Assembly: GCA_023129115.1 (NCBI GenBank)
Contig: JAGMCR010000002.1
Span: 64,001 to 128,000 of the forward strand
DNA length: 64,000 nucleotides
DNA from: Candidatus Iainarchaeum sp.
GTDB taxonomy: Archaea; B1Sed10-29; WALL01
Direction of reading: 5' to 3'
Part shown: positions 10,872-51,968 of the stretch, piece by piece
How positions within the stretch are numbered: position 1 is the first letter of the stretch
Layout: each line of letters begins with the position of its first letter
Position numbers and translations under genes: made by a program
Notes under the pieces: generated by a model
Seen by the model: the letters and a program-made list of their open reading frames with translations, nothing else
Told to the model about the DNA's origin: nothing
Database searches by the model: none

Positions 10872-10944
10872 GCCTCGGTAGCTCAGCCGGTAGAGCGGCA
10901 GTCTCGTAAACTGCAGGTCGGGGGTTCAATTCCCTCCCGAGGCT
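10872..10944 (+). tRNA. tRNA-Thr(CGT); anchor of the cassette array
   Basis: Full cloverleaf: acceptor GCCTCGG/CCGAGGC, D-stem GCTC/GAGC, anticodon stem GCAGT/ACTGC with loop CTCGTAA, TTCAATT T-loop. Confidence 0.97.
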
Positions 10945-11060
10945 CTGACCCTACGGTAGTAGAGCCTGCACCATAAAATTGTTGATGATTGCCTATAACG
11001 CTTTCGTTGCAGCCCTAACTCCTTGAATTTCCTAGGAAATCCGCGGAAACTGGAGGACGC

Positions 11061-14259: not shown

Positions 14260-14286
14260 GGGGTTCAATTCCCTCCCGAGGCTCCA
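14260..14286 (+). repeat. att-like copy 3 (T-arm plus acceptor strand plus CCA)
   Basis: GGGGTTCAATTCCCTCCCGAGGCTCCA; 25 nt identical to 10921-10945. Confidence 0.97.
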
Positions 14287-14359
14287 TTACTGCGTCAAGG
14301 AGCCCCTGCTCAATTCCGCACCAGTCTATAAATAGTCCTTTGAGCAGAGCCTCGGAGGC

Positions 14360-15529
14360 ATGAGGACTGACCCTTACAACACCGGCACGAAGCTAGTGAA
14401 TTGCCTTGAGCGGGTTAGGCAATCGCTTGACCTATGTAAAGCCAACAAGCGGCTGATTCTTGAGTTCCACGCCGAGGCCGTTGCCCGTGGCTTGTCGGAA
14501 AAGCGGTGCCTTAAGTACGTGAGTACTCTCCGCAACCTCGGAACCCAACTTGGAAAGCCCTTTAACAAGGCGGACAAGCACGACATCATTCGCTTGCTCT
14601 CTTGGCTTGAGTCAACCGCGTACAAGGAGTGGACGAAGCACGACTACAAAGTCATTCTGAAATCGTTTTACAAGTGGCTGAACGGTGGAGAAGAGTATCC
14701 AAAGGTTGTTTCGTGGGTAAAAACAGGGATGAAGAACGGCAACCACATGCTGCCCGAGGAATTGCTGACCGAGGAAGACGTGCGTGCTTTAGTTGAAGCG
14801 TGTACGAACCCGCGCGACAAAGCTTTTGTCCTCACGTTGTACGAGAGTGGCTGCCGAATAAGCGAGCTGCTGACGTTGCAGGTAAAGAGCGTGAGGTTTG
14901 ACGAGCACGGCTCAATCTTGCGAGTGACTGGGAAGACCGGTGACAGGCGCGTGAGGGTGATTTCCGCGGCTCCGGCAATCGCGTTGTGGCTCGACAACCA
15001 CCCCACAAGGAAAGGGCACTTGTTTTGCTCCTTGGATGGGACGGGCATCAACTACTCGACCGCTAACGTGCTGTTAAGGAGGCTTGCTAAGAAGGCAGGC
15101 ATTACGAAGCGTGTTAATCCGCACGGTTTCCGCCACGCCCGGGCCACGTCGCTCGCGAACAAGCTCACAGAAGCCCAAATGAAGGAGTTCTTTGGTTGGG
15201 CTCAAAGTAGCGAGATGGCGGCTGTGTACGTCCACTTGTTGGGGCGGGACGTGGACGATGCCCTGCTAAGCATTTACGGCGTGAAGCCACCCGAGGACGC
15301 TCGCAAGGAGCGTTTCGTGCCTAGGGCTTGTCCCAGGTGCAAGGAGACTAATTCTCCTGCTAGTAAATACTGTTGCAGGTGTGGCAGTGCGCTCGACCTC
15401 GCAACAGCGCTAGAGGCTGATGACAAGCACAAGGAAGCCGATGCATTGATGAACGAGCTCATCAAAGACGACAGGATAAAAGCGCTTCTATTGGAGCGGT
15501 TGGTTGCCATCCAAGCAGAGAATCATTAA
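14360..15529 (+). CDS. tyrosine recombinase/integrase with C-terminal zinc ribbon
   Basis: ESGCRISE (R), GKTG (K), HGFRH (HxxR), FGW, AVYVH (Y); CPRC...CCRC. Confidence 0.95.
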   Translation: MRTDPYNTGTKLVNCLERVRQSLDLCKANKRLILEFHAEAVARGLSEKRCLKYVSTLRNLGTQLGKPFNKADKHDIIRLLSWLESTAYKEWTKHDYKVILKSFYKWLNGGEEYPKVVSWVKTGMKNGNHMLPEELLTEEDVRALVEACTNPRDKAFVLTLYESGCRISELLTLQVKSVRFDEHGSILRVTGKTGDRRVRVISAAPAIALWLDNHPTRKGHLFCSLDGTGINYSTANVLLRRLAKKAGITKRVNPHGFRHARATSLANKLTEAQMKEFFGWAQSSEMAAVYVHLLGRDVDDALLSIYGVKPPEDARKERFVPRACPRCKETNSPASKYCCRCGSALDLATALEADDKHKEADALMNELIKDDRIKALLLERLVAIQAENH

Positions 15530-15990
15530 CCTTTTCGTTTGAGGTTGTTGTATATATTGAGTGGTTCAGCGCTCAAATTCTCGCGTTCCTGGCCTTGGTT
15601 CAACTGATTTTTTAGGAATTCAATAGCTGCCAAGTAGCTCATCGGGAGCGCATCAGAAGTGTTTTCTCCCCCTGTTCAGGAATCCACATTACGAAAAAAT
15701 TCGGATTTGAGAATGTTGTATTCTCTCTTGTATTAATGGGGCAGTTTTCGGTGCGGATTCTAAGGCGTTGCTAGTGATTGACCATTGTGTAATTAGGATT
15801 CTAATTATTCAGAAAGTAGGGGTTGTGTGAAGCTCGGGGGTGAATACTGACCCTGATGAGGGTTCTGCATTACGAAAAAATTGGGATTCGGAAGTTGGCC
15901 TCCTTTTAGTGATAGAAAATGGATTTGGCCTTAGTTCACGTTTAAACATAGGTTTTTATTTGAGGACTGCTTTTTTGGCTAAGGAGCGGA

Positions 15991-16665
15991 TTGCTGATGA
16001 CTGATACTTTAGTTGATGTTTTGCTGATGCCGAACATTATGGCACTATGGGTTCCAATAATCATAGCGGCCGCCTTAGTAATCCTAATGGGATTGGTTGT
16101 CCGCCACAAAAAAGTTTCTATATCTAAGTCTAAAAAATCGCCAGATAACAAAAAAGTTGCTTTCAGATCACTTGTGATTGTTGCAGTACTATCGTTGGTA
16201 TTTTTCTTTGTTGAACCCCAGATAATAAAAGGTCTCTCCACACCACTTTTAACAATCCCATTTAGTGTTGTCCCCGCTCTTCTACTCGGATTATTTTACA
16301 CTGGACTTCAATACACTCCCATAGAAATCAAATCAGACAAGAAGAAAGCGACGCTAACAGTTGATTTTATTACTATTAATCTATGCGCACTCTTCGCATT
16401 CTTGACATTGTTTAACTTCTCTCCTTATTTCCCCGGCGCGTTCACTAGCACGAGCAACATAGCAATCATTTTCATAATTGCGTTGGTACAGACTTTTTTG
16501 TTCTCGCTGATTGTGTTCGCTTCGGAAAAAGTAAAATTCATCAGACTAAAAAATTTCCTTGGGATTCCAAATTGGCTGATATGTGTTATACTCTTTATCC
16601 TGCCTTGGTTGTTTTTGATGTATGAAAAAGCTATCCCAGTGGTGGGTGGCCTCAGGACCCTATAA
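15991..16665 (+). CDS. multi-pass membrane protein
   Basis: About 6 hydrophobic segments; start uncertain. Confidence 0.7.
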   Translation: MLMTDTLVDVLLMPNIMALWVPIIIAAALVILMGLVVRHKKVSISKSKKSPDNKKVAFRSLVIVAVLSLVFFFVEPQIIKGLSTPLLTIPFSVVPALLLGLFYTGLQYTPIEIKSDKKKATLTVDFITINLCALFAFLTLFNFSPYFPGAFTSTSNIAIIFIIALVQTFLFSLIVFASEKVKFIRLKNFLGIPNWLICVILFILPWLFLMYEKAIPVVGGLRTL

Positions 16666-16756
16666 TCAAAAATGCCTAAATCGGCATTTGTTTAAACGTT
16701 TGGACGATATGTATTTATTCTGCAAGCGCTTTTTGTTTGAGTCGGGGTGTTCTTCA

Positions 16757-19570
16757 ATGAAGCGAATGTTAGATGCATCTAAGGGCTCAGTTATAGTGGT
16801 GGTTTTTATCCTACTCTTAATTGTTGGGGTTTATGCGTTTGCTCCGTGTCCTGTTTCTCCACCAGTAAACGAAGGTGACCCACTGCCAATACCTTGCTTT
16901 GAAGAAGGTATGTGCATGGGTGGTTGTTGCTGCTATGATGGTTATCTTCTTCTCGAAAGGAATACTACTGAAGAACAGCCCAGCGCGATTACAGGTATGA
17001 TGGTAGCAACCGCACCTTTAGAAGGCAATGCAATTGAGCCCCACAAAGTGGTTAGTTTGGTTGGTTTTGAAGGCTATGACAAGAATAGGGACAAGGTTGC
17101 GGATTCCATGCAGAACGGTGTTTACTTAGAGGGCGCTACAAAAGAACTATTCACTGTTGCTTTTGACCACAAACCAACAGAAGAAGACAAAAAACTGGTT
17201 AGAGATATGGGTGGGGAGGTTGTTTACGATTTCTCATTGATTTACGCTTTAACAGTTAGGATACAACCAACCAAAATAACTGAGTATGCAGCAGCCAATC
17301 CACATGTAGTTATCGTGAGTGACCCCCGTGTAACTAGATCACTGAAGATATACCGCACAGCAAAAGTAGTTCGTGTTCGACCTCTAGTTTGGGAAACCTA
17401 TGGCTACAATGGTAGCGGGGAAGTAGTCACAGTAATGGATAGTGGCGTAGATGACTCCCACGCAGATTTACAAGGCAAAATAAAAAACTGGATGGACTGC
17501 AATCCTGCAGGATGCACTACTATTGGTCAGACACTGCATGACAACGTGGGCCATGGAACGAGTATTGCGGGGATTATTGTGGGGTCTGGGACGCAGGTGG
17601 GTGGTTCTAGTGGAGTAGCCACAGTGAACATTATGATTCATAGCCGGTTTACGGGCGAAGGCGGAGAAGTATGGGGTGGCTATTTTTCAGTGGATACTGA
17701 TGATAACACCCATTCCATTGACGGAACCCTTAATTGGGAGGCGGCTGACGGGCAGGACAATTACACAATAAAAGTAACCAACTCTACAGGGCTACCAAAC
17801 GGTGTTATTGGGGACGAAACTTCCGATTCAGACCCCTTAACCTTAACCACCAACTCATTCACAGAAACCAGTGAAATCCAGTACAAGTTTTACGTTAGCG
17901 CAGAGAGTGGCAATGCACATAACAGCACTGATGAAGCCTATTTCGCGCAAATGAGTACACCTATTGAATCGGTGGGGGATAGTTATAACCTCATGAGGGG
18001 ACTGGCACCAGGTAGCGAGCTTGTTTCCGTGAAAGTTGTGCCAGATGATAATGACATAGCTCATTTATGGACTATGAATAATGCCTATGATTGGATTGGG
18101 TCTAATTCTGAATCAGATGGCGTTAAAGTGGTTTCCATTAGTTTGGGTGGGACAACCGCTGACCCTATTGAATCAAAAGTCATTAGTAACACGATAGACA
18201 AAGGGGTTCTGCCCGTTGCAGCAACAGGTAATGATAACGGTGTTATCGACTACCCTGCTAGGTATCCTGAAGTGCTTGCTGTGGGGGCGATTGACAGCGA
18301 TGGAGACGTGGCGGATTACAGTAATTACGGGAACTCAAGTGAAGGCTCTGAAAAATGGCCCGATGTTGTTGCTCCCGGTGGGTCAAGCTGGTTCACTTAT
18401 GAAAAATACCCTGTTTTAACACTCGACACAAACGACGCTGAGTGTGTGACGAACACAGGCCTAACTACATGCGAAAGTTTCTCTGAAGAATACACTAATG
18501 ACTCCATCTATGCGTACGGTACTTCCATGGCTGTCCCCCACGTATCCGCGATAGCTGCCTTGATTGCTGAGGCGAAGGGGAGTTGGACTTACAACTCTTC
18601 TACTGACCCGTTGTGGGTAAAAATGGTTATTTCGATGACGGCTTGGGAGACCAACGAAACCAACCGTGGTTCTAAAGACATCTATGAAGGCTATGGAGTA
18701 GTCGCTGCCGACGCGGCAATCGAAGCGGTTATCTTCAACCACACGCTTGGGGACATTGAGTCAGATACTTTTGGCTCGGGATTGACTGACAAGAAGGTGT
18801 GGGCCCGCGAAGTTTCGCCGGGAGACAAGGAAATTGATTTCACGCTGGTGGTGCCAAGCGGCGCGGACTACGACCTCTACCTTTACAACAATACTCCTGA
18901 CCAGTACGGCCAGCCACAGATACTGGACAATTCGACAACTGCTGCGACCGGCGGCACAGAAAGCATTACCTACAACTTTTCGGCGAGTCAGGAAGCGTAT
19001 TTGGTGGTGAAGTGGGTCAGCGGTAACGGAGCATTTACTTTGTCTAGTGTGGAAGACAAGGACAAAATGAGTTTGATTCAGGGTTGGAACCAGTTTTCGT
19101 TCCCGAAGCTTCCGGCGAACAAGACTGTGGCCAACGTGTTCTCTTCAATTAGTGGTAGTTATGACCGGATAGATGATTACATCGCTAACAACAAGTCGTG
19201 GCGGATTTACGACGTAGCTGCAATTGGCTATTCCATGACGTTAAGCAACATTGAGGGGGGCAGGTCTTATCGCATTCATATGAACCAGGCCGACACAATT
19301 GAGTTCAGCGGCACGGACGTGGCGCCAATCAATATCTCGCTTTATGAGGGCTGGAATTGGCTCGCTTGGCCAGGCGAGACGGAGGCAATCGCCAGTGCGT
19401 TGAGCTCAATCGACGGGAGCTACAACAGAATAGATGAACTCTACGCTGGGGAGTGGGAAATTTATGATAGCTCCATCCCCGATGAGTACGACCAATCCCT
19501 GGACTACATGAAAAGAGGCAGAGGGTACGTAATTCTCATGAACTCTAACGACACACTCGAGGTGAATTAG
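16757..19570 (+). CDS. secreted S8 subtilisin-like serine protease
   Basis: VMDSG, HGT, GTSMA catalytic triad; N-terminal signal; C-terminal L..GWN repeats. Confidence 0.92.
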   Translation: MKRMLDASKGSVIVVVFILLLIVGVYAFAPCPVSPPVNEGDPLPIPCFEEGMCMGGCCCYDGYLLLERNTTEEQPSAITGMMVATAPLEGNAIEPHKVVSLVGFEGYDKNRDKVADSMQNGVYLEGATKELFTVAFDHKPTEEDKKLVRDMGGEVVYDFSLIYALTVRIQPTKITEYAAANPHVVIVSDPRVTRSLKIYRTAKVVRVRPLVWETYGYNGSGEVVTVMDSGVDDSHADLQGKIKNWMDCNPAGCTTIGQTLHDNVGHGTSIAGIIVGSGTQVGGSSGVATVNIMIHSRFTGEGGEVWGGYFSVDTDDNTHSIDGTLNWEAADGQDNYTIKVTNSTGLPNGVIGDETSDSDPLTLTTNSFTETSEIQYKFYVSAESGNAHNSTDEAYFAQMSTPIESVGDSYNLMRGLAPGSELVSVKVVPDDNDIAHLWTMNNAYDWIGSNSESDGVKVVSISLGGTTADPIESKVISNTIDKGVLPVAATGNDNGVIDYPARYPEVLAVGAIDSDGDVADYSNYGNSSEGSEKWPDVVAPGGSSWFTYEKYPVLTLDTNDAECVTNTGLTTCESFSEEYTNDSIYAYGTSMAVPHVSAIAALIAEAKGSWTYNSSTDPLWVKMVISMTAWETNETNRGSKDIYEGYGVVAADAAIEAVIFNHTLGDIESDTFGSGLTDKKVWAREVSPGDKEIDFTLVVPSGADYDLYLYNNTPDQYGQPQILDNSTTAATGGTESITYNFSASQEAYLVVKWVSGNGAFTLSSVEDKDKMSLIQGWNQFSFPKLPANKTVANVFSSISGSYDRIDDYIANNKSWRIYDVAAIGYSMTLSNIEGGRSYRIHMNQADTIEFSGTDVAPINISLYEGWNWLAWPGETEAIASALSSIDGSYNRIDELYAGEWEIYDSSIPDEYDQSLDYMKRGRGYVILMNSNDTLEVN

Positions 19571-19597
19571 AGGGGGATACTTGACCTGGTCAAGCTG

Positions 19598-19611
19598 TCC
19601 TCCCGGGGCTC
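19598..19611 (+). repeat. att-like copy 4 (left arm B, right arm A)
   Basis: TCCTCCCGGGGCTC followed by the same 28 nt that follow the tRNA. Confidence 0.92.
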
Positions 19612-20322: not shown

Positions 20323-20495
20323 GCCGTGGGCTAACCTTAAAAATGGTTGATGAGTGTAGTTACGCAGTATACACCGCGGGATGGTATCCATGATAGACAG
20401 GTCATTTCCTAGGAAGTTCCGCGGAAATGAGGTGTGTGAGGGGCAAAAAGCGGTGCAGGCTCTATAGCCGTACGAGCTGTTCCCTCCCGAGGCTC
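20323..20495 (+). repeat. ~170 bp duplicate of 13380-13552, including att copy 5 (20480-20495)
   Basis: Near-identical on direct comparison. Confidence 0.95.
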
Positions 20496-20661
20496 AGCGT
20501 CCTGGGGGGCGCAGCCCCCCACGAAGCCCATGACGTTGACACAAGTCAACGTCCAGTCCACGGGAAGAGTCCCCTCAGTAATACTGTACTAGCTGCTGCC
20601 GGGCGGCCTTGCGCCGCCCTCGTCTAACGTGCCGCCTGAGTTTCAGGCGCTCCCGAGGCTC
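20496..20661 (+). mobile_element. gene-free hairpin mini-cassette C1 with att copy 6 (20650-20661)
   Basis: AGCGTCCTGGGGGGCGCAGCCCCCC ... CTAACGTGCCGCCTGAGTTTCAGGCG CTCCCGAGGCTC. Confidence 0.75.
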
Positions 20662-20843
20662 AGCGTCCTGGGGGGCGCAGCCCCCCACTACCCCGGGAAG
20701 CGCCCCCCCAGGTGAGTGGGTAAGAGCTCGCTTCCGCTCGCGGTTTTTGTCTCTGGGAATCGCAGATTCCCAAGCCTAACGTGCTGTACCGTGAATCCCA
20801 ACGGATTTGCGGTTGTCCTGAGTTTCAGGCGCTCCCGAGGCTC
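20662..20843 (+). mobile_element. gene-free hairpin mini-cassette C2 with att copy 7 (20832-20843)
   Basis: Same head and tail as C1, different middle. Confidence 0.75.
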
Positions 20844-21101
20844 TGACCCTACGGTAGCAGAGCCCGCTTCACCCCAAGCATGAGGCCGGACTTGCGCATA
20901 AGCTTCCTAGGGGTTTGTGGGGTTTGGGCCAATAAATTTATCAGGTTGTGGCATTCCTCGCTGAAGTATTGTCCCGCTGTCACTAAAAAACCCGTCCATT
21001 CCCTACAATAACGCTTAAAATATTGCCGTGGGGCGCATTCAGTCACGTTTATAAACTATAACATGTTAGATATATCGGTACCGATATTAAAAGGTTTTGT
21101 T

Positions 21102-21599
21102 ATGAACTTGTTTGCTAGGGGCTTGCTGAAAATTTATGTCTTGTACATGGCCAAACAGGGTTCCATTTCAGGCAGTGATGTTGCCAAGAGCATAAGCGCT
21201 GCCACAGACGGGCGGTGGAAGCCGAGCTTTGGCTCGATTTACCCGCTGCTGGGGAGGTTTGAGGAAGATGGCCTGCTGTGCCAGGAGGCTAGGAAGGGAA
21301 AGCAGGTCTTTTACTCACTCACCAAGAAGGGTGTGAAAGAGTTCGAGAGGCAGAGGGAAAAATACATTGCCGAGTACGAGGACAACCTCGGGACGCTGTT
21401 CCCCCTGGTCTTCCAGCTGGCGCAGTTCGAGGCCGACAAAGAGCTGCAAGACGCCGTCACGAACCTGAACCAAGTGTTCGCGAAATACAAGAAATACTTG
21501 TTCAACCTGGAGCTAAACGAAAAAGTGGAGAAAAGAAAGCGCATAATCAAGGACTTGTCCGCCACCCTTTCGGACCACATGAGCAAGCTGGAGAAGTGA
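21102..21599 (+). CDS. PadR family transcriptional regulator
   Basis: PSFGSIYPLLGRFEEDGL...YSLTKKG. Confidence 0.9.
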   Translation: MNLFARGLLKIYVLYMAKQGSISGSDVAKSISAATDGRWKPSFGSIYPLLGRFEEDGLLCQEARKGKQVFYSLTKKGVKEFERQREKYIAEYEDNLGTLFPLVFQLAQFEADKELQDAVTNLNQVFAKYKKYLFNLELNEKVEKRKRIIKDLSATLSDHMSKLEK

Positions 21600-21603
21600 T
21601 GTT

Positions 21604-22926
21604 ATGGAAAAATACGACGCAATTGTTGTGGGGTGTGGCATAAGCGGGCTGCTCGCGGGCCTTGCGCTTGCCAAGGAAGGAAAGAGTGTGCTAATGCTCG
21701 AGAAGGAAGACAAAGTTGGTGGCGCGTGCAGGTCTTACGACGTTGACGGCTTCGTGGTCGACACCGGGCCGCATGTGATTACTGGGCGGGGGAATGGGCC
21801 AACCCAATTGCTGATAGACAAGTATTTTGACGTGGTGCCGAAGTTCATTGAGAGCAGAAAATATTTCCTGCGGTTTGACGGCAAGTTATACGCTTTCCCT
21901 TGGACGATTCCGGCTTGGCTATCGTTCCCACCGTTCTCAGTCGAAGACAGGCTCATCATTGTCCAGGTGATGTTCAAGTTGTTGGCAGACTATGCCTCTG
22001 GCAAAGGCTTGGGGGATAAAGTGGTGTCTGATTACACGGCGGGCCATGAGCTCTCGGGAAGGGCGCTGCAGTTCATTGATTGCATGTGCCTGTTTTTGAC
22101 GGGCGTTTGCATGGAGGAAACGCCCGTGAGCCGAATCCTTTCCGGGGGAAGGAGCAAAAACAAGACAAAAGCGGAAAAAATAAAAGAGATTTTGGTTGAA
22201 AACGGGAAGACCCATTACTATCCGCGTGGGGGGATCCAAACTATTGTTAACTCTGTATTGCAGTCCCTCCCGAAGAACGCCGGGATTCACAAGAGCGAAG
22301 AAGCAACCAAAATCGTGGTCAGTGGCGGGCGTGTTTCTGGTGTCGCCACGGACAAAGGCGAGTACGCCACGAAGGTAGTGGTTTACGCTGGACCGAACAA
22401 GCTCCTTCCCGGCTTGGTGGAACTGCCCCAAGAGTACATCCAAAAATTCAGGGGCTTGAAGCAAGCGAGGACGCTGACGCTGTGGCTCGGGCTAAATAAA
22501 AAATACTTCGCAGAAGTTGGGACAGAGCTTTGGACCGAAACAAAAAAGCCTTGCTGGGCCGTCCCAACATCCAATTTTGATTCTGCACTCGCCCCGACGG
22601 GGAAGCACTTGGTGGGCTTCGGCTTCGTGCTCGCGGAAGATGAGCAGGTGACCGACGACAACATTGACGACTATGTCAAAGTAGTCGAGGAAGTGTTCCC
22701 GGGCATAAGGGAACACATCGAGATGACCCATTACCAAGTGCTGGTTGCCGAGCAGGCAGCCAACGCAAAAGACAATTTCTTCAGCGGGGTCAAGCTGCCG
22801 GTCGATGGGCTGTACGCGGTCGGCACTGACGTCGACAGGCGGAGCATGGGCGTGACGAGGGCCGCGTACTCCGTAGTCTCGTTGATTGAAGCCCTAAAAC
22901 AAGGCGGTTTTGTTACGAAGGTGTGA
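21604..22926 (+). CDS. FAD-dependent oxidoreductase, phytoene desaturase-like superfamily
   Basis: VVGCGISGL, GGACRS, FVVDTGPH, YPRGG. Confidence 0.85.
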   Translation: MEKYDAIVVGCGISGLLAGLALAKEGKSVLMLEKEDKVGGACRSYDVDGFVVDTGPHVITGRGNGPTQLLIDKYFDVVPKFIESRKYFLRFDGKLYAFPWTIPAWLSFPPFSVEDRLIIVQVMFKLLADYASGKGLGDKVVSDYTAGHELSGRALQFIDCMCLFLTGVCMEETPVSRILSGGRSKNKTKAEKIKEILVENGKTHYYPRGGIQTIVNSVLQSLPKNAGIHKSEEATKIVVSGGRVSGVATDKGEYATKVVVYAGPNKLLPGLVELPQEYIQKFRGLKQARTLTLWLGLNKKYFAEVGTELWTETKKPCWAVPTSNFDSALAPTGKHLVGFGFVLAEDEQVTDDNIDDYVKVVEEVFPGIREHIEMTHYQVLVAEQAANAKDNFFSGVKLPVDGLYAVGTDVDRRSMGVTRAAYSVVSLIEALKQGGFVTKV

Positions 22927-22930
22927 AAAA

Positions 22931-24028
22931 ATGAAGTACAAAAAAATAGTTTTCCCGCGGGACGGTGCCGCCCATGACAACGTTATTGAGTGGTGGTACT
23001 TTAACGGGCACCTGAAGGACGGGAATGGCAATGGGTATGCCTTCATGGACTGCCTGTTCAAGGCAAAGCCCAAAGAAGTGAAACTTCCTTTTTTGAAAAA
23101 GATTCCACTCAAAAACGCTTATTTCGCCCACTCCCTTTTGTCTGACATCAAGGACAACGTGTTTTATTCAAGCGTGCAGCCCCTGAGCATACTCTCGAGG
23201 GACAGCTTTTCAAAGCCCTTGTTTTTCGTGAATTACTCCCACCCCTCTTTGGGCGGCTACCTGAATTACGAAATCGAGGAGATTGACGGGTTCAAGTATA
23301 GAATCAAGTCCGAGTTCTTTGACTTGACCTTGAGCTCGACCAAGAAGCCGCTGCTTGAGGGCGGGCGCGGGTTCATTGACTTGAATTCAAAGCAAACGTT
23401 TTACTACTCGCTGACAAACCTCGAGACAGAGGGATACGTCACTGTCAACGGCAAGCGAATCAAGGTAAAAGGCAAGTCCTGGATGGACCACCAGTGGGCC
23501 GACGTCCCGTACTCGAAGGACAAGTGGAGCTGGTTTTCAATCCAATTGGACAACAACACGGAAATGGTTTGCTTTGAGTATGGCGACAAGAAAAAGAAGA
23601 CTTATCTCGCGAGCATTTCGTACGCGAACGGAAGGGTCGCCCACGCCAGTGACTTATCACTAACCCCATTAGGCCAGGTATGGGAGAGCAAGAGAACTGG
23701 CGCCAAGTATCCCCTTTCATGGAGGATTCAAGTCCCGTCAAAAAGAATTGACCTCGTGGTGAGCCCCTTAATGAAAGAACAGGAAATAATTTTTGGGCCA
23801 ATCAACTACTGGGAGGGGCCGTTAAAAGTAACGGGAAAAGTGAACAACAAAAAAGTGGCTGGAAAAGGATTTTCAGAGCTTGTCGGCTACCCGACAACAA
23901 AGTCTTTTGTTGAGTTTTATGAGCCAGAACTAAGGAAAATCGAGAAAATAGTTAAAAGAGACTTAAGCGAATGGGTGGGTCATACGATTAGTGGAAAGCC
24001 GGGGTTTGCCGCGGATCGCAGGAAGTGA
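22931..24028 (+). CDS. CrtC/AttH lipocalin-like protein
   Basis: EWWYFNGHL, YYS, WMDHQW, WSWFSIQL, YWEG. Confidence 0.85.
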   Translation: MKYKKIVFPRDGAAHDNVIEWWYFNGHLKDGNGNGYAFMDCLFKAKPKEVKLPFLKKIPLKNAYFAHSLLSDIKDNVFYSSVQPLSILSRDSFSKPLFFVNYSHPSLGGYLNYEIEEIDGFKYRIKSEFFDLTLSSTKKPLLEGGRGFIDLNSKQTFYYSLTNLETEGYVTVNGKRIKVKGKSWMDHQWADVPYSKDKWSWFSIQLDNNTEMVCFEYGDKKKKTYLASISYANGRVAHASDLSLTPLGQVWESKRTGAKYPLSWRIQVPSKRIDLVVSPLMKEQEIIFGPINYWEGPLKVTGKVNNKKVAGKGFSELVGYPTTKSFVEFYEPELRKIEKIVKRDLSEWVGHTISGKPGFAADRRK

Positions 24029-24034
24029 GGTTGT

Positions 24035-24868
24035 TTGGGCTTTGGTGGTTTCTTGCTTCACTTGCGGCCGCTGTCGTGGCCACTTGTCGCACTGCAAGTC
24101 TTGACGGGGTTCGTGCTCGCCGGCGGCAACACTGTCTCTCTTGAGGTCTTGTTAGGTTTCTTTGTCATCGTTGTCTGTATGAACGGGGGAACACTGGCGT
24201 TCAACTCTTACTTCGACAGGGACGGTGGAAATGTGGGGTGGCTGGACAACCCACCCAAAACAACTAAGCAAACATATTACTTGTCGCTCGCGCTGATGGT
24301 ATTTGGTGTGCTCGCCGCCTTGCTGGTGTCCCATGAATTTTTCTATTTGGCTTCCGCATCTTTCGTTGTTAGCGTTGCTTATTCACATCCTTGGTTCAGG
24401 CTCAAGTCGGTGCCACTGGCAGACGCCATTTGTAGTGGCGTGGGTTACGGGGTGCTCATGTTTCTTGGGGGTTGGGTACTCGCGTCACCAGTCTTGACTG
24501 CCAAGGCCGGGGTCGTGTGCGTGGGAATGTTCCTGGCGTTCATGGCTGGGGTTCCATTGACCCAAATATATCAAATGCGTGAAGACAAAAAGAGGGGTGA
24601 TAGGACCACTGCATTGGCCTTGGGACCGGACAAATCAAAGTGGATGTTTTACTTCTTTGGCACGCTTTCTGTAGCCGTGTTGTTGTTTGCTGTTATGGAG
24701 GGGTTCTTGGGGAAACTTGCGCTACTGGCGGGCGTGCCTTTATTCTGGCTGGCGTTACAAGTACGGAACATCAAATCATTCAAGCACAAGCAAAAAGTTT
24801 ATGAGGCATACGTCGTGGTTGTTGTTGTGGATGTGGTTATCATTCTTTCAGAACTCGTTCCAGTGTAA
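24035..24868 (+). CDS. UbiA family prenyltransferase
   Basis: NSYFDRD, YSHP.RLK, EDKKRGDRT; many TM helices. Confidence 0.85.
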   Translation: MGFGGFLLHLRPLSWPLVALQVLTGFVLAGGNTVSLEVLLGFFVIVVCMNGGTLAFNSYFDRDGGNVGWLDNPPKTTKQTYYLSLALMVFGVLAALLVSHEFFYLASASFVVSVAYSHPWFRLKSVPLADAICSGVGYGVLMFLGGWVLASPVLTAKAGVVCVGMFLAFMAGVPLTQIYQMREDKKRGDRTTALALGPDKSKWMFYFFGTLSVAVLLFAVMEGFLGKLALLAGVPLFWLALQVRNIKSFKHKQKVYEAYVVVVVVDVVIILSELVPV

Positions 24869-24952
24869 CACACCCCCTTTCCGCGGAAGCTTCCCCGGAA
24901 ATGACTTGGGTGTGGCTGATTTTGGGCGCAGGCTCTAGAGCCATACGAGCTG

Positions 24953-24967
24953 TTCTCCCCCGAGCTC
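24953..24967 (+). repeat. degenerate att copy 8 (left arm A upstream)
   Basis: GCAGGCTCTAGAGCCATACGAGCTG then TTCTCCCCCGAGCTC. Confidence 0.8.
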
Positions 24968-25002
24968 TTTTATACTTCTTTTGACTAAAATTGTTTACTC
25001 TT

Positions 25003-26058
25003 ATGCATACACAAGAGCTTGTCACACGGCTTGAGGATGCGGAGAAAGCCGTTTCTGGGTACGGGGGGCAAAGGCTGTTGCTAATCAGCCAGTACTACGG
25101 CGCCCAAATGGATTTCGTCGATAGGATAGAGGCGGGCGTTGAGAGGGGCAAGAGGCTGATGAGTGCGGACATTGTTGTCAGAAGAAAGCATGCCATGAGC
25201 CAGCAGAAGATTTTCAAGAGGATGGCGCAGTTTTTCAAGCAAGTCGATGGCTCATACAAAAAAGGGGACATCAAGGACAAGGAGGGCCGTGTGTTCGCCC
25301 GCGCCTATGACAAGGCGGTCCACGGCCATTTTGCCAAGGTACGGGAGATTCTTTCAGAGGTAGAGGGCATGGCCGTGGTATACACGGAATTTGTTGGGCT
25401 TGAGGAAGAAGCAAAAAGGCAAAAGAAAAAGTTGGGGAAAAGGAAGGCGTCCATCCATGCATTGCTCGAGGAAGCGGGCTCGGTAAAGCCGCTTGATGGC
25501 GATTACGTGAAAAAGCATGGGGAAGTGCTTCGGAGCCTGGAGAAAGCCAAGGGGCTTAGGGCGGAGTACATACAAAAAATTCGTGGCAAGAGTGTTATGG
25601 AGTACGTGGCAATGCTGAAAAACAAGGATTTGGTCAAGGTGGGCTTTCCAGGCGCGGACCCTGCTGACATCACCAAATTCTTGAATGCTTATCCAGAGCT
25701 CTCAAAGGCAACGCCGGAGAAACTGCTTGAATATCGTTCCTGGACAGACGGGAAGCTAAAGCACACAATCCCGGAGACCAAGAGGTTCAGGAGCATGATG
25801 CAGGAGTATGGCTCTTGGCTGGAACGCCTTGAGCACCTTGAGTCATTGGGGTTCATGGTTGTTAGGAACGTGGAGGACGCGAAGAGGCTCGCGCCATTAT
25901 TCAGGGGGACCGAGGCCGGTGGCGTGCTGTCAAGCCTTAGCGGGCTTGGGGATTACTGGATGGCGCCCCCCAAAGGCGCACCAGTCAGGGACACACCAAA
26001 GCTAAAAAAAGAGCTTTCCGAGATAGGCAGGGAACTGGCGCTTCTGGAAGGCGTTTAG
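25003..26058 (+). CDS. hypothetical coiled-coil protein
   Basis: ~350 aa charged helical ORF. Confidence 0.7.
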   Translation: MHTQELVTRLEDAEKAVSGYGGQRLLLISQYYGAQMDFVDRIEAGVERGKRLMSADIVVRRKHAMSQQKIFKRMAQFFKQVDGSYKKGDIKDKEGRVFARAYDKAVHGHFAKVREILSEVEGMAVVYTEFVGLEEEAKRQKKKLGKRKASIHALLEEAGSVKPLDGDYVKKHGEVLRSLEKAKGLRAEYIQKIRGKSVMEYVAMLKNKDLVKVGFPGADPADITKFLNAYPELSKATPEKLLEYRSWTDGKLKHTIPETKRFRSMMQEYGSWLERLEHLESLGFMVVRNVEDAKRLAPLFRGTEAGGVLSSLSGLGDYWMAPPKGAPVRDTPKLKKELSEIGRELALLEGV

Positions 26059-27695: not shown

Positions 27696-27776
27696 AGCGT
27701 CCTGGGGGGCGCAGCCCCCCCACTGGGCGGTTCGGCACGCGCGGGGTTTATTAACCTTCTTTTCGTTGGCTGTGCA

Positions 27777-28607
27777 ATGAAGCGCGTTGCCCTGCCCATA
27801 CTGCTGCTCTTGCTTGTTGGCTGCATTGGCACGCCTTCTCCACCAGCCGGCCAGTGCTCTGGCCCCACTGTCTCAATCGCGACGTTCAACATACAAGTCT
27901 TCGGGCAAGCAAAAATGGGCGACCCGGAAGCCGTGGACTCGCTCGTGGGCATAGCCACACGGTTTGACATCGTCGCCATCCAAGAGGTCCGCGACGCAAG
28001 CGAGACCACTGTCCCGCGCTTCGTCAGCGAAATCAACTCACGCAACCACTCCTACGCGTACGTAATAAGCGAGCGGCTCGGCTCCACGTCGTCAAAAGAG
28101 CAGTACGCCTTTGTCTACAACACAGAAACAATCTCGTTCGAAAACTTTTCGTACCTCGTCAACGACACCGTGTTCGAGCGCCCGCCGTTCGTCGCAAAGT
28201 TCAGGGCAGGAGAGTTTGATTTTTTCCTCGTGAACACGCACGTGAAGCCGGAGAAGGGGCGCACCGCCAGCGAGATAAAAGCGCTTGCCGGCGCGGTCAC
28301 TGAAGACGAGGACTACATAATCCTGGGCGACTTCAATGCCGACTGCTCTTACCTCGACGAAAAAACGCTTTCCTCCCTCTTGCCCGGGCTGGACATAATC
28401 GTTTCCAACGAAGACGATACCACAGTGGGCGCGTCCGACTGCACGTACGACAGGATAGCCATCACGCCACGAACGCGTGAGGACTACTCAAGCTACGGAG
28501 TGTACTTGTTCGACAAAGAGCTTGGGCTGGACAGCACGCAAGCAAAAAGCGTGTCAGACCATTACCCCGTGTACGCAGAGTTTTACATTTCGTGCGACAC
28601 CGATTGA
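27777..28607 (+). CDS. DNase I-like EEP nuclease, lipoprotein
   Basis: ATFNIQ, AIQE, GDFNADC, YDRI, SDHYPV; LVGC lipobox. Confidence 0.92.
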   Translation: MKRVALPILLLLLVGCIGTPSPPAGQCSGPTVSIATFNIQVFGQAKMGDPEAVDSLVGIATRFDIVAIQEVRDASETTVPRFVSEINSRNHSYAYVISERLGSTSSKEQYAFVYNTETISFENFSYLVNDTVFERPPFVAKFRAGEFDFFLVNTHVKPEKGRTASEIKALAGAVTEDEDYIILGDFNADCSYLDEKTLSSLLPGLDIIVSNEDDTTVGASDCTYDRIAITPRTREDYSSYGVYLFDKELGLDSTQAKSVSDHYPVYAEFYISCDTD

Positions 28608-28623
28608 TGGGCTCCAAGAAGTG

Positions 28624-28854
28624 AATCCCTCCCAAGGCTCCATCTCAGCGTCCTTAGGGGGAGCGCAGCTCCCCCTGGCCCAGACGAACAACAACCGAAC
28701 ATCCTGTGGGGGATGTCCGGTATCCTGCGGGATGTACGTCATACCCTGGGAAGCCTCACCCCCTCAGTAATCCTGTACTAATCTGTCTCTTGGGGCCTTG
28801 TGCCCCAAAGCCTAACGTGCCAGCTGAGTTTCAGCTGAATCCCTCCCGAGGCTC
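28624..28854 (+). mobile_element. gene-free mini-cassette C3 between att copies 12 (28624-28642) and 13 (28838-28854)
   Basis: AATCCCTCCCAAGGCTCCA ... GGGGGAGCGCAGCTCCCCC ... CTAACGTGCCAGCTGAGTTTCAGCTG AATCCCTCCCGAGGCTC. Confidence 0.78.
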
Positions 28855-33015: not shown

Positions 33016-33513
33016 ATGAAGGGTCTTTCGGGTAAGGAGTTGGAGATGGTCTCGTTTCTCGAGCTGAAGGAAAAGTATTTTTTCACGAGGAGCGACGTGA
33101 GGCGATTTTTCAAGAGCGAGAACGAGATGAACGTCTACCTGCACAGGCTTAAGAAAAAAGAAAGAATCGTGAAGCTGAACAGAAGCAAGTATTTCCTTGT
33201 CCCAGTGAAAGCGTTCGGGGGCTTCTGGGCAGAGCACCCCCTCGTGATTATTGATGAAATCTTTAACGGGGAGAACTACTTCATTAGGGGGATGGCTGCA
33301 GCACATTACTGGGGGTTGATAGACCAGATTCCCACGCAGGTAGAAGTGGCTTGCACGAACAAGCAAGGAAAGAAAAAGATTTTTGGGTTCATTATCCTGT
33401 TCAAGAGGGTGAGGCCAGCAAGCATGAAGGGCTTCGTGAAGAGGAAAATCGGGAAGCATCCTTTCCGGATAATGCCAAAGAAGGGGGTTGAGGAATGGCT
33501 GAAATCTCGTTGA
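33016..33513 (+). CDS. abiEi: type IV TA antitoxin, AbiEi-like
   Basis: wHTH-like N-terminus, AAAHYWGLIDQIP; upstream of AbiEii. Confidence 0.8.
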   Translation: MKGLSGKELEMVSFLELKEKYFFTRSDVRRFFKSENEMNVYLHRLKKKERIVKLNRSKYFLVPVKAFGGFWAEHPLVIIDEIFNGENYFIRGMAAAHYWGLIDQIPTQVEVACTNKQGKKKIFGFIILFKRVRPASMKGFVKRKIGKHPFRIMPKKGVEEWLKSR

Positions 33514-34256
33514 TGAACACGGCAGAACTAAAGCACGTTGCCGGAAAAATGGGGTTCAACTTAATCTACCTGGAAAAGGATTATTTCCTGACGCTGCTGC
33601 TGTATTTGCTCAGGGACATTAGTGGCATTTGCTTCAAAGGCGGCACTGCATTGAACAAGATATTCCTCAATCACACGCGCCTCAGTGAGGACCTGGACTT
33701 CACGTGCACTGGCGACTTAAAAAAAGTAAAAAAGGAAGTGCTGGAAGTACTGGGAGAAAACAAAAGCATTTTCACTCGTCACGAGTTTGATAACCAGACA
33801 CAAAACTTCTTCCGCCTAAAAGTATTCTACAAAAGCGATTTCTCCAAGAACAGCTACGTGGTTCTTGACGTGAACAGCAAAGCATCGGTTCACAAGAAAC
33901 CAAAAGCAGAAGTAGTGCCGCACTTCTATGAATCTATTCCACAATTCAAGGTTAAGACACTGGCACCTGAAGAACTTGTAGCTGAAAAAGTGAGGGCACT
34001 GATAACCCGGAACCAGCCCCGGGATTATTATGATGTCTACACTCTCCTGCAAAATGGTTACAAGGTGAACAAAGCCCTGCTAAGAAAAAAGTTGGCCGAA
34101 GCAAATGAATGCTTTGATATTGACAGGATATTCGTAAACGCCAAGAAGATTTATTCAAAGTGGGATGAGGATGTTGCCCATTTAACAAACAAACCAGTAA
34201 CGTACACCGCTGCCATCAAGGCTCTCCAGAAAGAGTTCGGGTACAAGAGCAAATAA
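33495..34256 (+). CDS. abiEii: AbiEii nucleotidyltransferase toxin
   Basis: EKDY, FKGGTAL, RLSEDLDF, AEK, RDYYD. Confidence 0.92.
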   Translation: MAEISLMNTAELKHVAGKMGFNLIYLEKDYFLTLLLYLLRDISGICFKGGTALNKIFLNHTRLSEDLDFTCTGDLKKVKKEVLEVLGENKSIFTRHEFDNQTQNFFRLKVFYKSDFSKNSYVVLDVNSKASVHKKPKAEVVPHFYESIPQFKVKTLAPEELVAEKVRALITRNQPRDYYDVYTLLQNGYKVNKALLRKKLAEANECFDIDRIFVNAKKIYSKWDEDVAHLTNKPVTYTAAIKALQKEFGYKSK

Positions 34257-50516: not shown

Positions 50517-50634
50517 GCAGGGGTACCAAAGCGGCCAAATGGGATGGACTCAAGCGGTAGATGGAAAATCCGCCCGTCTCTCGGAGATATCCATTGGCTT
50601 AGTGCCTTCGAGAGTTCGAATCTCTCCCCCTGCA
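50517..50634 (+). tRNA. tRNA-Leu(CAA) with ~34 nt intron (50555-50588)
   Basis: GCAGGGG/CCCCTGC acceptor, ATGGA/TCCAT anticodon stem split at 37/38, long variable arm, GAGAG TTCGAAT CTCTC. Confidence 0.92.
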
Positions 50635-50801
50635 CTCAGCCCCTTGGGGGGCGCAGCCCCCCACTGAGCTGGCGTGCATCCCCCCAGGTGAGTGGGTAAG
50701 GGCTCGCTTGCGCTCGCGGTTTTTGTCTCTGGGAATCGCTAGATTCCCAAGCCTAACGTGCCGCCTTAGTTTAAGGCGTTATAATCCCTTCCCCTGCACT
50801 C
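50635..50801 (+). mobile_element. mini-cassette C4 ending in a tRNA-Leu 3' repeat (50783-50801)
   Basis: Homologous to C2; AATCCCTTCCCCTGCACTC versus tRNA AATCTCTCCCCCTGCACTC. Confidence 0.78.
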
Positions 50802-51864: not shown

Positions 51865-51968
51865 CTTCCCCCGCACCACAGCCCCTTGGGGGGCACAGCC
51901 CCCCACTGAGCTGGCGTGCATCCCCCAGGTGAGTGGGTAAGGGCTCGCTTGCGCTCGCGGTTTTGTTT
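51865..51968 (+). repeat. tRNA-Leu-like 3' end plus truncated mini-cassette C5
   Basis: CTTCCCCCGCACCA then ~85 nt nearly identical to 50637-50725. Confidence 0.8.

Follow-up and report, generated by a model that had tools for sequence, protein, structure and literature searches.

Family C is a group of DNA elements of 60–300 nt that carry no open reading frame (ORF), are built from interchangeable hairpin modules and are restricted to a single genus. The elements conserve the fold of their hairpins while the stem sequences change, sit at the ends of genes where they can be flanked by direct repeats of the target end, and at one locus could be compared between an empty and a filled site. We favor the reading that they are non-autonomous mobile DNA moved in trans, to which we give a probability of about one half. 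The starting point was a 64,000-nt stretch of one genome (hereafter the window), in which three units, C1, C2 and C3, each fill exactly one slot between neighboring cores of a cassette array behind a tRNA-Thr(CGT) gene. The window's genome (G000) comprises 1.25 Mb in 19 contigs and is 88.6% complete; together with G001 and G002 it makes up a set of three genomes of one DPANN genus, all of them incomplete (84–89%).

The array is anchored by the tRNA gene, whose last 12 nt recur as the core. On the + strand, 14 core copies lie between 10934 and 39057 (nine exact and five with one mismatch), which delimit 13 cassettes across 28 kb, from tRNA-Thr(CGT) to a GMP-synthase gene. When up to two mismatches were allowed on both strands of the whole window, 21 core matches were counted, compared to 5.8 ± 2.2 in shuffled sequences, and none of 100 shuffles reached 21. 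Ten of the 13 cassettes bear genes, among them cassette 14285–19599 with tyrosine recombinase and subtilase genes, and the remaining three are the gene-free family-C units. G002 lacks an array at the orthologous tRNA-Thr locus, where the native tRNA 3′ end agrees with the array's last core. The relevant features are as follows.

10872..10945, + strand: tRNA-Thr(CGT), anchor of the array, its last 12 nt being the core (ARAGORN; Rfam tRNA, 70.7 bits)
14360..15529, + strand: Xer-like tyrosine recombinase within cassette 14285–19599 (Pfam PF00589, E 5e-24)
20484..20495, + strand: core copy left of C1 (tRNA-Thr 3′ end)
20650..20661, + strand: core copy between C1 and C2
20832..20843, + strand: core copy right of C2
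27696..28628, + strand: gene-bearing cassette with the head common to family C and no tail unit
27777..28607: endonuclease/exonuclease/phosphatase ORF in cassette 27696–28628
28629..28640, + strand: core copy left of C3, one mismatch
28843..28854, + strand: core copy right of C3
39057..39068, + strand: last core of the array, ending in ...GGCTT before a T-rich run, like the native tRNA-Thr end of G002

Family-C units in the window occur both in this array and behind a second, intron-bearing tRNA.

20496..20649, + strand: unit C1, 154 nt, read from the sequence; head motif 20496–20503, head hairpin 20504–20520, inner hairpin 20532–20553, variable hairpin 20601–20619, CTAACGTGC 20624–20632, tail hairpin 20633–20649
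20662..20831, + strand: unit C2, 170 nt; head hairpin 20670–20686, variable hairpin 20755–20771, CTAACGTGC 20776–20784, extra inserted hairpin 20785–20815, degraded tail hairpin 20816–20831
28641..28842, + strand: unit C3, 202 nt; head hairpin 28657–28675, variable hairpin 28790–28808, CTAACGTGC 28812–28820, tail hairpin 28821–28837
50517..50634, + strand: intron-bearing tRNA, anchor of the second array, missed by ARAGORN (Rfam tRNA, 42.4 bits; gathering score 29)
50637..50778, + strand: fourth family-C copy, of the C2 subtype, with tail hairpin 50762–50778
51879..51964, + strand: partial family-C copy with head modules only, after another tRNA-end-like repeat

Sequence comparison of the window units bore out a shared head (AGCGTCCT plus a G/C hairpin) and a shared tail (CTAACGTGC plus a hairpin with a GTT loop), as had been claimed in an earlier note on this DNA. 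The same note described the units as gene-free and lying between cores, and this is what we found: no ORF longer than 37 aa lies wholly within C1, C2 or C3, the ORFs of 50–97 aa in the region cross a core or a neighboring cassette, and each unit ends exactly at a core copy, a place in the array that suits its term “empty cassette”. Its coordinates are correct for C1 and C2, but the third unit begins at 28641 rather than 28643. Likewise, the tail copy at 50762 has a genuine stem but is part of the array behind the intron-bearing tRNA, and an imperfect 17-nt copy of that tRNA's 3′ end follows it at 50783–50799. The proposed likeness to MITEs did not survive in the strict sense, since C1–C3 lack terminal inverted repeats (best head-versus-tail reverse-complement matches of 10, 4 and 6 nt). 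Such repeats are present in neighboring gene cassettes (17/20, 20/22, 14/14 and 19/24). More generally, cassette ends in the array (10946–39056) fall into three types, of which types A and B have terminal inverted repeats of 14–22 nt a few bases inside the cores.

Across the family, the most constant part is the tail unit, in which a stem-variable hairpin is followed by CTAACGTGCC and then by a 7-bp hairpin whose loop is GTT; at the left end, AGCGTCC followed by a G/C hairpin is common. Whole-unit folding of four window copies gave z-scores of −2.3 to −6.6 relative to dinucleotide shuffles, with both strands equal (C1, −4.1 as RNA and −6.2 as DNA). In 23 aligned tail copies, which had been selected for possessing a stem, all seven pairs were 100% paired, three pairs were changed on both sides, and the cells changed on both sides numbered 22 versus 7.2 ± 1.7 in shuffles (0 of 500 shuffles). 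Because of that selection, the fair test is a pattern search with the variable positions set to N. In this unbiased set, 52 of 55 matches were fully complementary in the tail stem and represented six Watson–Crick haplotypes across the three genomes, which confirms the covariation first noticed in the window. The hairpin before CTAACGTG also changes sequence and stays a hairpin, as had been noted earlier: it has at least 6 bp in all 51 units examined, in 46 distinct sequences (median z −3.6) that do not align across copies. The unpaired motif between the hairpins is invariant and the stems on either side of it vary. Decay occurs as well, the terminal hairpin of C2 being reduced to 5–6 bp. The head hairpin varies by paired insertions and has loops of GCA, ACA, TGT and TGC, so the G-N-A triloop once put forward as a key feature is not conserved and the argument built on it is weak.

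Searches with the tail pattern found 24 copies in G000, 2 in G001 and 29 in G002 and none in 38 other relatives, and a reversed-pattern control gave none in any genome. BLAST of 20496–20843 had matches in 3 of 31 genomes of the class, namely the same three. Among 185,579 species genomes, multi-copy matches were confined to two uncultured-archaeon assemblies (23 and 2 loci). Five bacterial records with a single match each lack the upstream hairpin, as does one IMG/VR match with unrelated surroundings that might have indicated a viral link, and we attribute all of these to chance. In Rfam 15, only tRNA exceeded its gathering score in the window, and the best other match in 20400–20900 reached 19 bits against a threshold of 88. 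A literature search returned no description of this hairpin-element family.

The placement of the units follows the ends of genes. A same-strand tRNA ends no more than 600 nt upstream of 17 of the 35 short tail units in G000; in the sister genomes, 5 of 27 units have one within 400 nt upstream. Others follow the thermosome stop codon immediately or are found at ORF 3′ ends or at the 5′ ends of tRNA genes (Ser and Gly), and further units are intergenic beside promoter-like boxes; both orientations relative to neighboring genes occur. The expectation that matches would lie only downstream of tRNAs therefore fails, and placement at the ends of genes holds. For 11 of the 44 tRNAs of G000, the terminal 12 nt recur no more than 400 nt further downstream, and the interval between tRNA and copy is always an ORF-less hairpin mosaic, usually with a tail unit last. 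After the tail unit comes a spacer of 0–8 nt and then 7–20 nt of the tRNA 3′ end. A split tRNA or an intron was considered and rejected, given that the upstream tRNA needs no splicing to be complete and that several of the distal copies have degenerated.

We evaluated flanking repeats in 51 units defined by the 24-nt tail pattern alone, by searching for an exact stretch from up to 330 nt upstream that recurs just after the tail. Such a stretch, with a length of 10 nt or more, was present at 19 of 51 units, versus 1.3% of 992 mismatched left/right pairs, and repeats of at least 12 nt flank 14 of 51, versus 0.6% in controls; in the other 32 of 51 units the repeat is shorter than 10 nt. The repeats measure 10–32 nt and duplicate sequence of the target site itself: a tRNA 3′ end, the initial 12 nt of a tRNA, or the last codons of an ORF with its stop codon. 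They include repeats of unrelated sequence, such as 13 nt at a tRNA-Gly 5′ end, 14 and 26 nt at ORF ends, and 21 nt at a complete head-to-tail element, and elements of only 59–62 nt have perfect 13–14-nt repeats. Homology breaks off sharply at the repeat border. One copy of the direct repeat completes the target gene, so the gene stays intact. We also asked whether the element itself might carry a tRNA copy, with the repeat extending left into a degenerate T-loop, and found 2.47 matches in the 8 positions beyond the repeat (17 repeats, ungapped), as expected by chance; the idea was rejected.

Some arrangements deviate from the common one. In G001, head-only elements behind tRNA-Cys and tRNA-Gln (loci L044 and L051) are repeated perfectly in tandem, with a period of 94 nt; they are inverted relative to the tRNA and each has a 15–20-nt copy of its 3′ end. 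The spacers of two tRNA clusters (G000:C4:9117-9566 and G000:C12:40154-40574) are filled by family-C hairpin modules, which would belong to the tRNA precursor if those clusters are transcribed as one unit. Finally, G002:C6:4159-21693 (loci L033 and L034) holds 11 tail units on one strand, 0.2–4 kb apart, with more shared motifs after the tail, and may be a second kind of cassette array that has no tRNA anchor.

Comparison between the three genomes supports the claim that the dispersed units behave as inserted DNA, as does the presence of target-end repeats in 19 of 51. At tRNA-Glu(TTC), G000 equals G002 plus a 130-nt element and a 15–17-nt repeat, which is one clean empty/filled pair; an older inverted unit is present in both genomes at this locus, and its stem differs by compensatory changes. 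The 3′ end of the thermosome gene is empty in G001 and has one unit in G002 and two units plus a 19-nt gene-end repeat in G000. Similar units also recur at different targets. Four tRNAs are followed by co-linear copies of the C2 type, namely Thr-CGT, Glu-CTC, the intron-bearing tRNA and, in G002, Arg-TCG, with 90–94% identity (C2 itself matches G000:C4:7051-7222 at 94% over 172 nt and window 50645–50761 at 90% over 117 nt). A copy of C3 at G000:C14:11338-11533 is 89.5% identical over 200 nt, and the Val-TAC element shares 94% identity over 229 nt with the Gly-TCC element. Segments of 94–100% identity between loci, among them shorter blocks of 98–100%, end at module borders, so gene conversion between copies could mimic movement; the mosaic pattern fits recent movement and also gene conversion. 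A search of sequencing runs for the locus listed three public DNA runs of one study, one of them possibly the window's source, and no RNA run. Logan contigs of these runs break at every core; apparent joints in them are matches to other repeat copies, and no Logan contig spans a unit so as to reveal an empty site or an excised circle. Read depth over the array is even at ~19x in the likely source run, which is not independent evidence because that run is likely the one from which the window was assembled.

We searched for an enzyme that could move the units. The only PF00589 match in the whole of G000 is the array integrase at 14360–15529. Its best model is the archaeal XerA-like NF040815 (131 bits, below the 220-bit cut-off), and it scores 46.8 bits against the integron integrase model TIGR02249, below the cut-off of 265. 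The cassette that bears it is bounded by the same core as C1–C3. An 84–85% identical integrase adjoins the same tail-plus-core junction in another genus of the same family (locus L055), whereas flanking housekeeping DNA is only 72–86% identical between species of the window's own genus, which suggests recent horizontal transfer of the integrase cassette. Furthermore, 12 of 38 relatives of the array integrase have a same-strand tRNA that ends no more than 170 nt upstream of the match (His, Ser, Thr, Asp and Tyr), an indication that the integrase family as a whole targets many tRNAs. The earlier suggestion to look for a co-occurring recombinase was thus met by one tyrosine recombinase in G000, but PF00589 had no match in G002 (29 units, some with perfect repeats; 84% complete) and the HUH Y1 family (PF01797) had none in G000. 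PF00589 matches were likewise absent from G003 and G004 (the latter 98% complete), and the one in G000 is cassette-borne; this lineage may lack a chromosomal XerA. Cas1 (PF01867) had no match in G000, G001 or G002. Profile searches found neither reverse transcriptase nor rve, and DDE_Tnp_1 gave one fragment below cut-off. An all-against-all blastp comparison of 2,697 ORFs (120 aa or longer) gave no multi-copy family with more than three members. Two further ideas were discarded: the units as TnpB guide RNAs, since the four TnpB-like genes of G000 are remote from the units, and a primer-binding site of a retroelement, since reverse transcriptase was not found.

We propose that family-C elements would be inserted at the very ends of genes, most often at tRNA 3′ ends and in some cases at tRNA 5′ ends or protein-gene 3′ ends, with 10–26 nt of the gene end repeated directly on either side. 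At tRNA-Thr, the mobilizing enzyme would most likely be the Xer-like tyrosine integrase of the neighboring cassette, and for C1–C3 trans-mobilization by this integrase is the simplest reading. At other targets, the enzyme would be a related integrase on elements absent from these genomes or one of an unrecognized kind. The hairpins would be kept because a single-stranded nucleic acid must fold, rather than for a protein that reads their sequence. Several observations weigh against movement in trans. No mobilizing enzyme for the family as a whole was found in the searches above, the single tyrosine recombinase cassette of G000 sits at tRNA-Thr, more than 20 target sequences are many for site-specific integrases, and an integrase-type element would usually bring a copy of its target with it. 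By the standards of a transposase, the repeat (10–26 nt) and the spacer between tail and repeat (0–8 nt) are unusually variable in length. Moreover, the 32 units with repeats shorter than 10 nt, the scope for gene conversion and the lack of any excised circle or population-level presence/absence in the run contigs count against it. For the family as a whole, the number of targets, the two orientations, the 60-nt elements with perfect repeats and the lack of a recombinase match in G002 point either to an unrecognized mobilizing enzyme or to scars of many past integrations.

In the second case, each unit would be the remnant of a larger integrated plasmid or virus that brought its own integrase and site and then lost its interior, much like a solo LTR, and the unit would never have moved as such. 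This would account for the number of targets, for the lack of integrases and for the repeats at the borders, and it agrees with a family-C head that also opens the gene-bearing cassette 27696–28628, with the G002 tail units spaced 1–3 kb apart between genes along one contig, and with the many different tRNAs targeted by relatives of the array integrase. Integrase loss after integration and module exchange between tandem elements are noted in PMC8371274. However, copies at different targets align from end to end and share their borders (94% identity over 172 nt in one case and over 229 nt in another). Independent deletions would not produce such copies unless the parent elements had long terminal direct repeats, of which none were seen. 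The 59–62-nt elements with perfect 13–14-nt repeats also fit poorly, and we consider an origin as scars improbable.

Alternatively, the modules may function at the RNA level. As part of a tRNA trailer or 3′ UTR they would define or shield transcript ends, as REP/BIME sequences do, or they could be a small RNA; their spread would then be due to recombination, with the DNA repeats incidental. Consistent with such a role, the 17 of 35 units in G000 behind tRNAs are co-oriented with them and directly downstream, one unit is placed after the thermosome stop codon and ahead of a hairpin with a T-run, and the stem-variable hairpins frame an invariant single-stranded motif. Of 12 long-form units, 11 fold better on the tRNA-sense strand (mean difference 4.6 kcal/mol), and a T-G wobble, which would be an A-C mismatch on the other strand, is kept in 8 of 12 variant tail hairpins. 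Yet the orientation relative to neighboring genes is mixed, neither strand of the four window copies folds better than the other, and no Rfam family matches. A function in RNA would also leave the target-end duplication and the exact filling of one slot unexplained, and we consider it an unlikely account of the family.

A bolder reading is that family C represents a new kind of structure-defined DPANN mobile element, in which an enzyme outside the known classes would recognize the hairpin fold and insert the element at gene termini with a long, variable target-end duplication. Tyrosine recombinase, HUH, rve-type DDE, Cas1 and reverse transcriptase were not found in the sister genome with 29 copies, so on this reading the enzyme would be of none of these kinds. 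In a variant of it, by analogy with integrons, Xer-like integrases may act on folded single strands as integron integrases act on attC, with the tRNA 3′ end in the place of attI. We regard the reading as quite doubtful. Movement as single-stranded DNA by a HUH (Y1) transposase or RAYT, which would make the units REPINs or IS200/IS605-derived palindromes as the earlier note proposed, is close to refuted: a hairpin next to a conserved single-stranded motif, as seen here, is a typical HUH recognition site, and G000 has four TnpB-like genes, but PF01797 has no match in G000, the TnpB-like genes are on other contigs or far from any unit, and the units are flanked by 10–26-nt target repeats, unlike IS200/IS605, whose insertion makes no target duplication.

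The preferred reading, non-autonomous DNA moved in trans, places family C beside several known systems. According to PMC6563490, archaeal tyrosine-recombinase elements have att repeats of 8–26 bp (median 17), target tRNA genes and 3′-distal parts of protein genes, supply replacement stop codons and form tandem arrays. The features described here match that report in att-type repeat length, tRNA and 3′-distal targets, stop codons and arrays. Family C thus resembles such integrated and cryptic integrated element arrays in its short direct repeats, its targets, the element-supplied stop codon and the re-use of sites that leads to arrays. It differs in being 60–300 nt long and gene-free, in having more than 20 targets and either orientation, and in that G002, with its 29 copies, gave no tyrosine recombinase match. 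CIMEs, known from the Streptococcus thermophilus literature, are att-flanked elements without recombination genes that are mobilized in cis or in trans by the integrase of an ICE. They share with family C the att-type repeats, the lack of an own integrase and the tandem arrangement with an integrase-bearing element at a tRNA-type site; CIMEs, however, measure kilobases and derive from one ICE at one site, in contrast to tiny hairpin mosaics at many sites.

MITEs are likewise small, non-coding, multi-copy and intergenic with flanking duplications, but C1–C3 have no terminal inverted repeats, the family-C duplications are long and variable, and a partner transposase was not found in these genomes (84–89% complete). 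In MITEs the duplication has a fixed length set by the partner transposase; the repeats at 19 of 51 family-C units range over 10–32 nt. REP/BIME and REPIN-RAYT sequences are also GC-rich, lineage-specific hairpin mosaics that have a short motif beside a stem and occur at gene ends in both orientations. Unlike family C, REPs lack a flanking duplication of the target end and do not occupy slots of an integrase array. The RAYT family (PF01797) has no match in G000. The ends of IS200/IS605 elements (PATE) differ from family C in that the four TnpB-like genes lie away from all units and the units carry target duplications. Integron cassettes share with family C an array beside a fixed site, boundaries conserved in structure rather than sequence (attC), an Xer-related recombinase and ORF-less cassettes, and archaeal integrons have been reported. 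Here, the recombinase falls below the integron-integrase cut-off, the boundaries are copies of a tRNA 3′ end and the integrase is inside a cassette. An attC site has R and L boxes and extrahelical bases and recombines as its folded bottom strand; the four window copies show no preference for either strand. Casposons also insert at the 3′ ends of tRNAs and other genes with a target duplication, which is 14–15 bp long. Family C departs from them in that Cas1 had no match in G000, G001 or G002, its units lack terminal inverted repeats and its repeats differ in length. PMC6563490 mentions casposons inserted in tandem with target-site duplications.

DPANN genomes are very small and tightly packed, yet about a quarter of the tRNA genes in G000 (11 of 44) are followed immediately by a gene-less hairpin insert, and behind one tRNA 13 cassettes have accumulated over 28 kb. 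Should the units be capable of moving by themselves, they would be the smallest site-directed insertion elements described for archaea and would point to a mobilizing enzyme missed by current profile searches. If they are scars, they would record heavy, repeated traffic of integrating elements through nearly all tRNA genes of a reduced genome. In either case, the units explain why short-read assemblies break at these loci, create tRNA 3′-end fragments that annotation tools can mistake for genes, and form a compact natural data set of compensatory stem evolution.

Annotation of tRNAs in these genomes calls for care. Several tRNAs of G000 have long or non-canonical introns, and ARAGORN with the intron option made improbable calls in this genome (introns >1 kb) and dropped tRNA-Thr(CGT). 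Two other cassettes of the array are noted for their gene content. The cassette at 21063–26058 encodes a PadR regulator, a flavin amine-oxidase/desaturase-like protein, a CrtC-like hydratase, a UbiA prenyltransferase and a DUF7118 protein, which resembles a carotenoid-modification set on a mobile cassette in a DPANN genome, and another cassette has an AbiEii-type nucleotidyltransferase toxin gene at 33495–34256.
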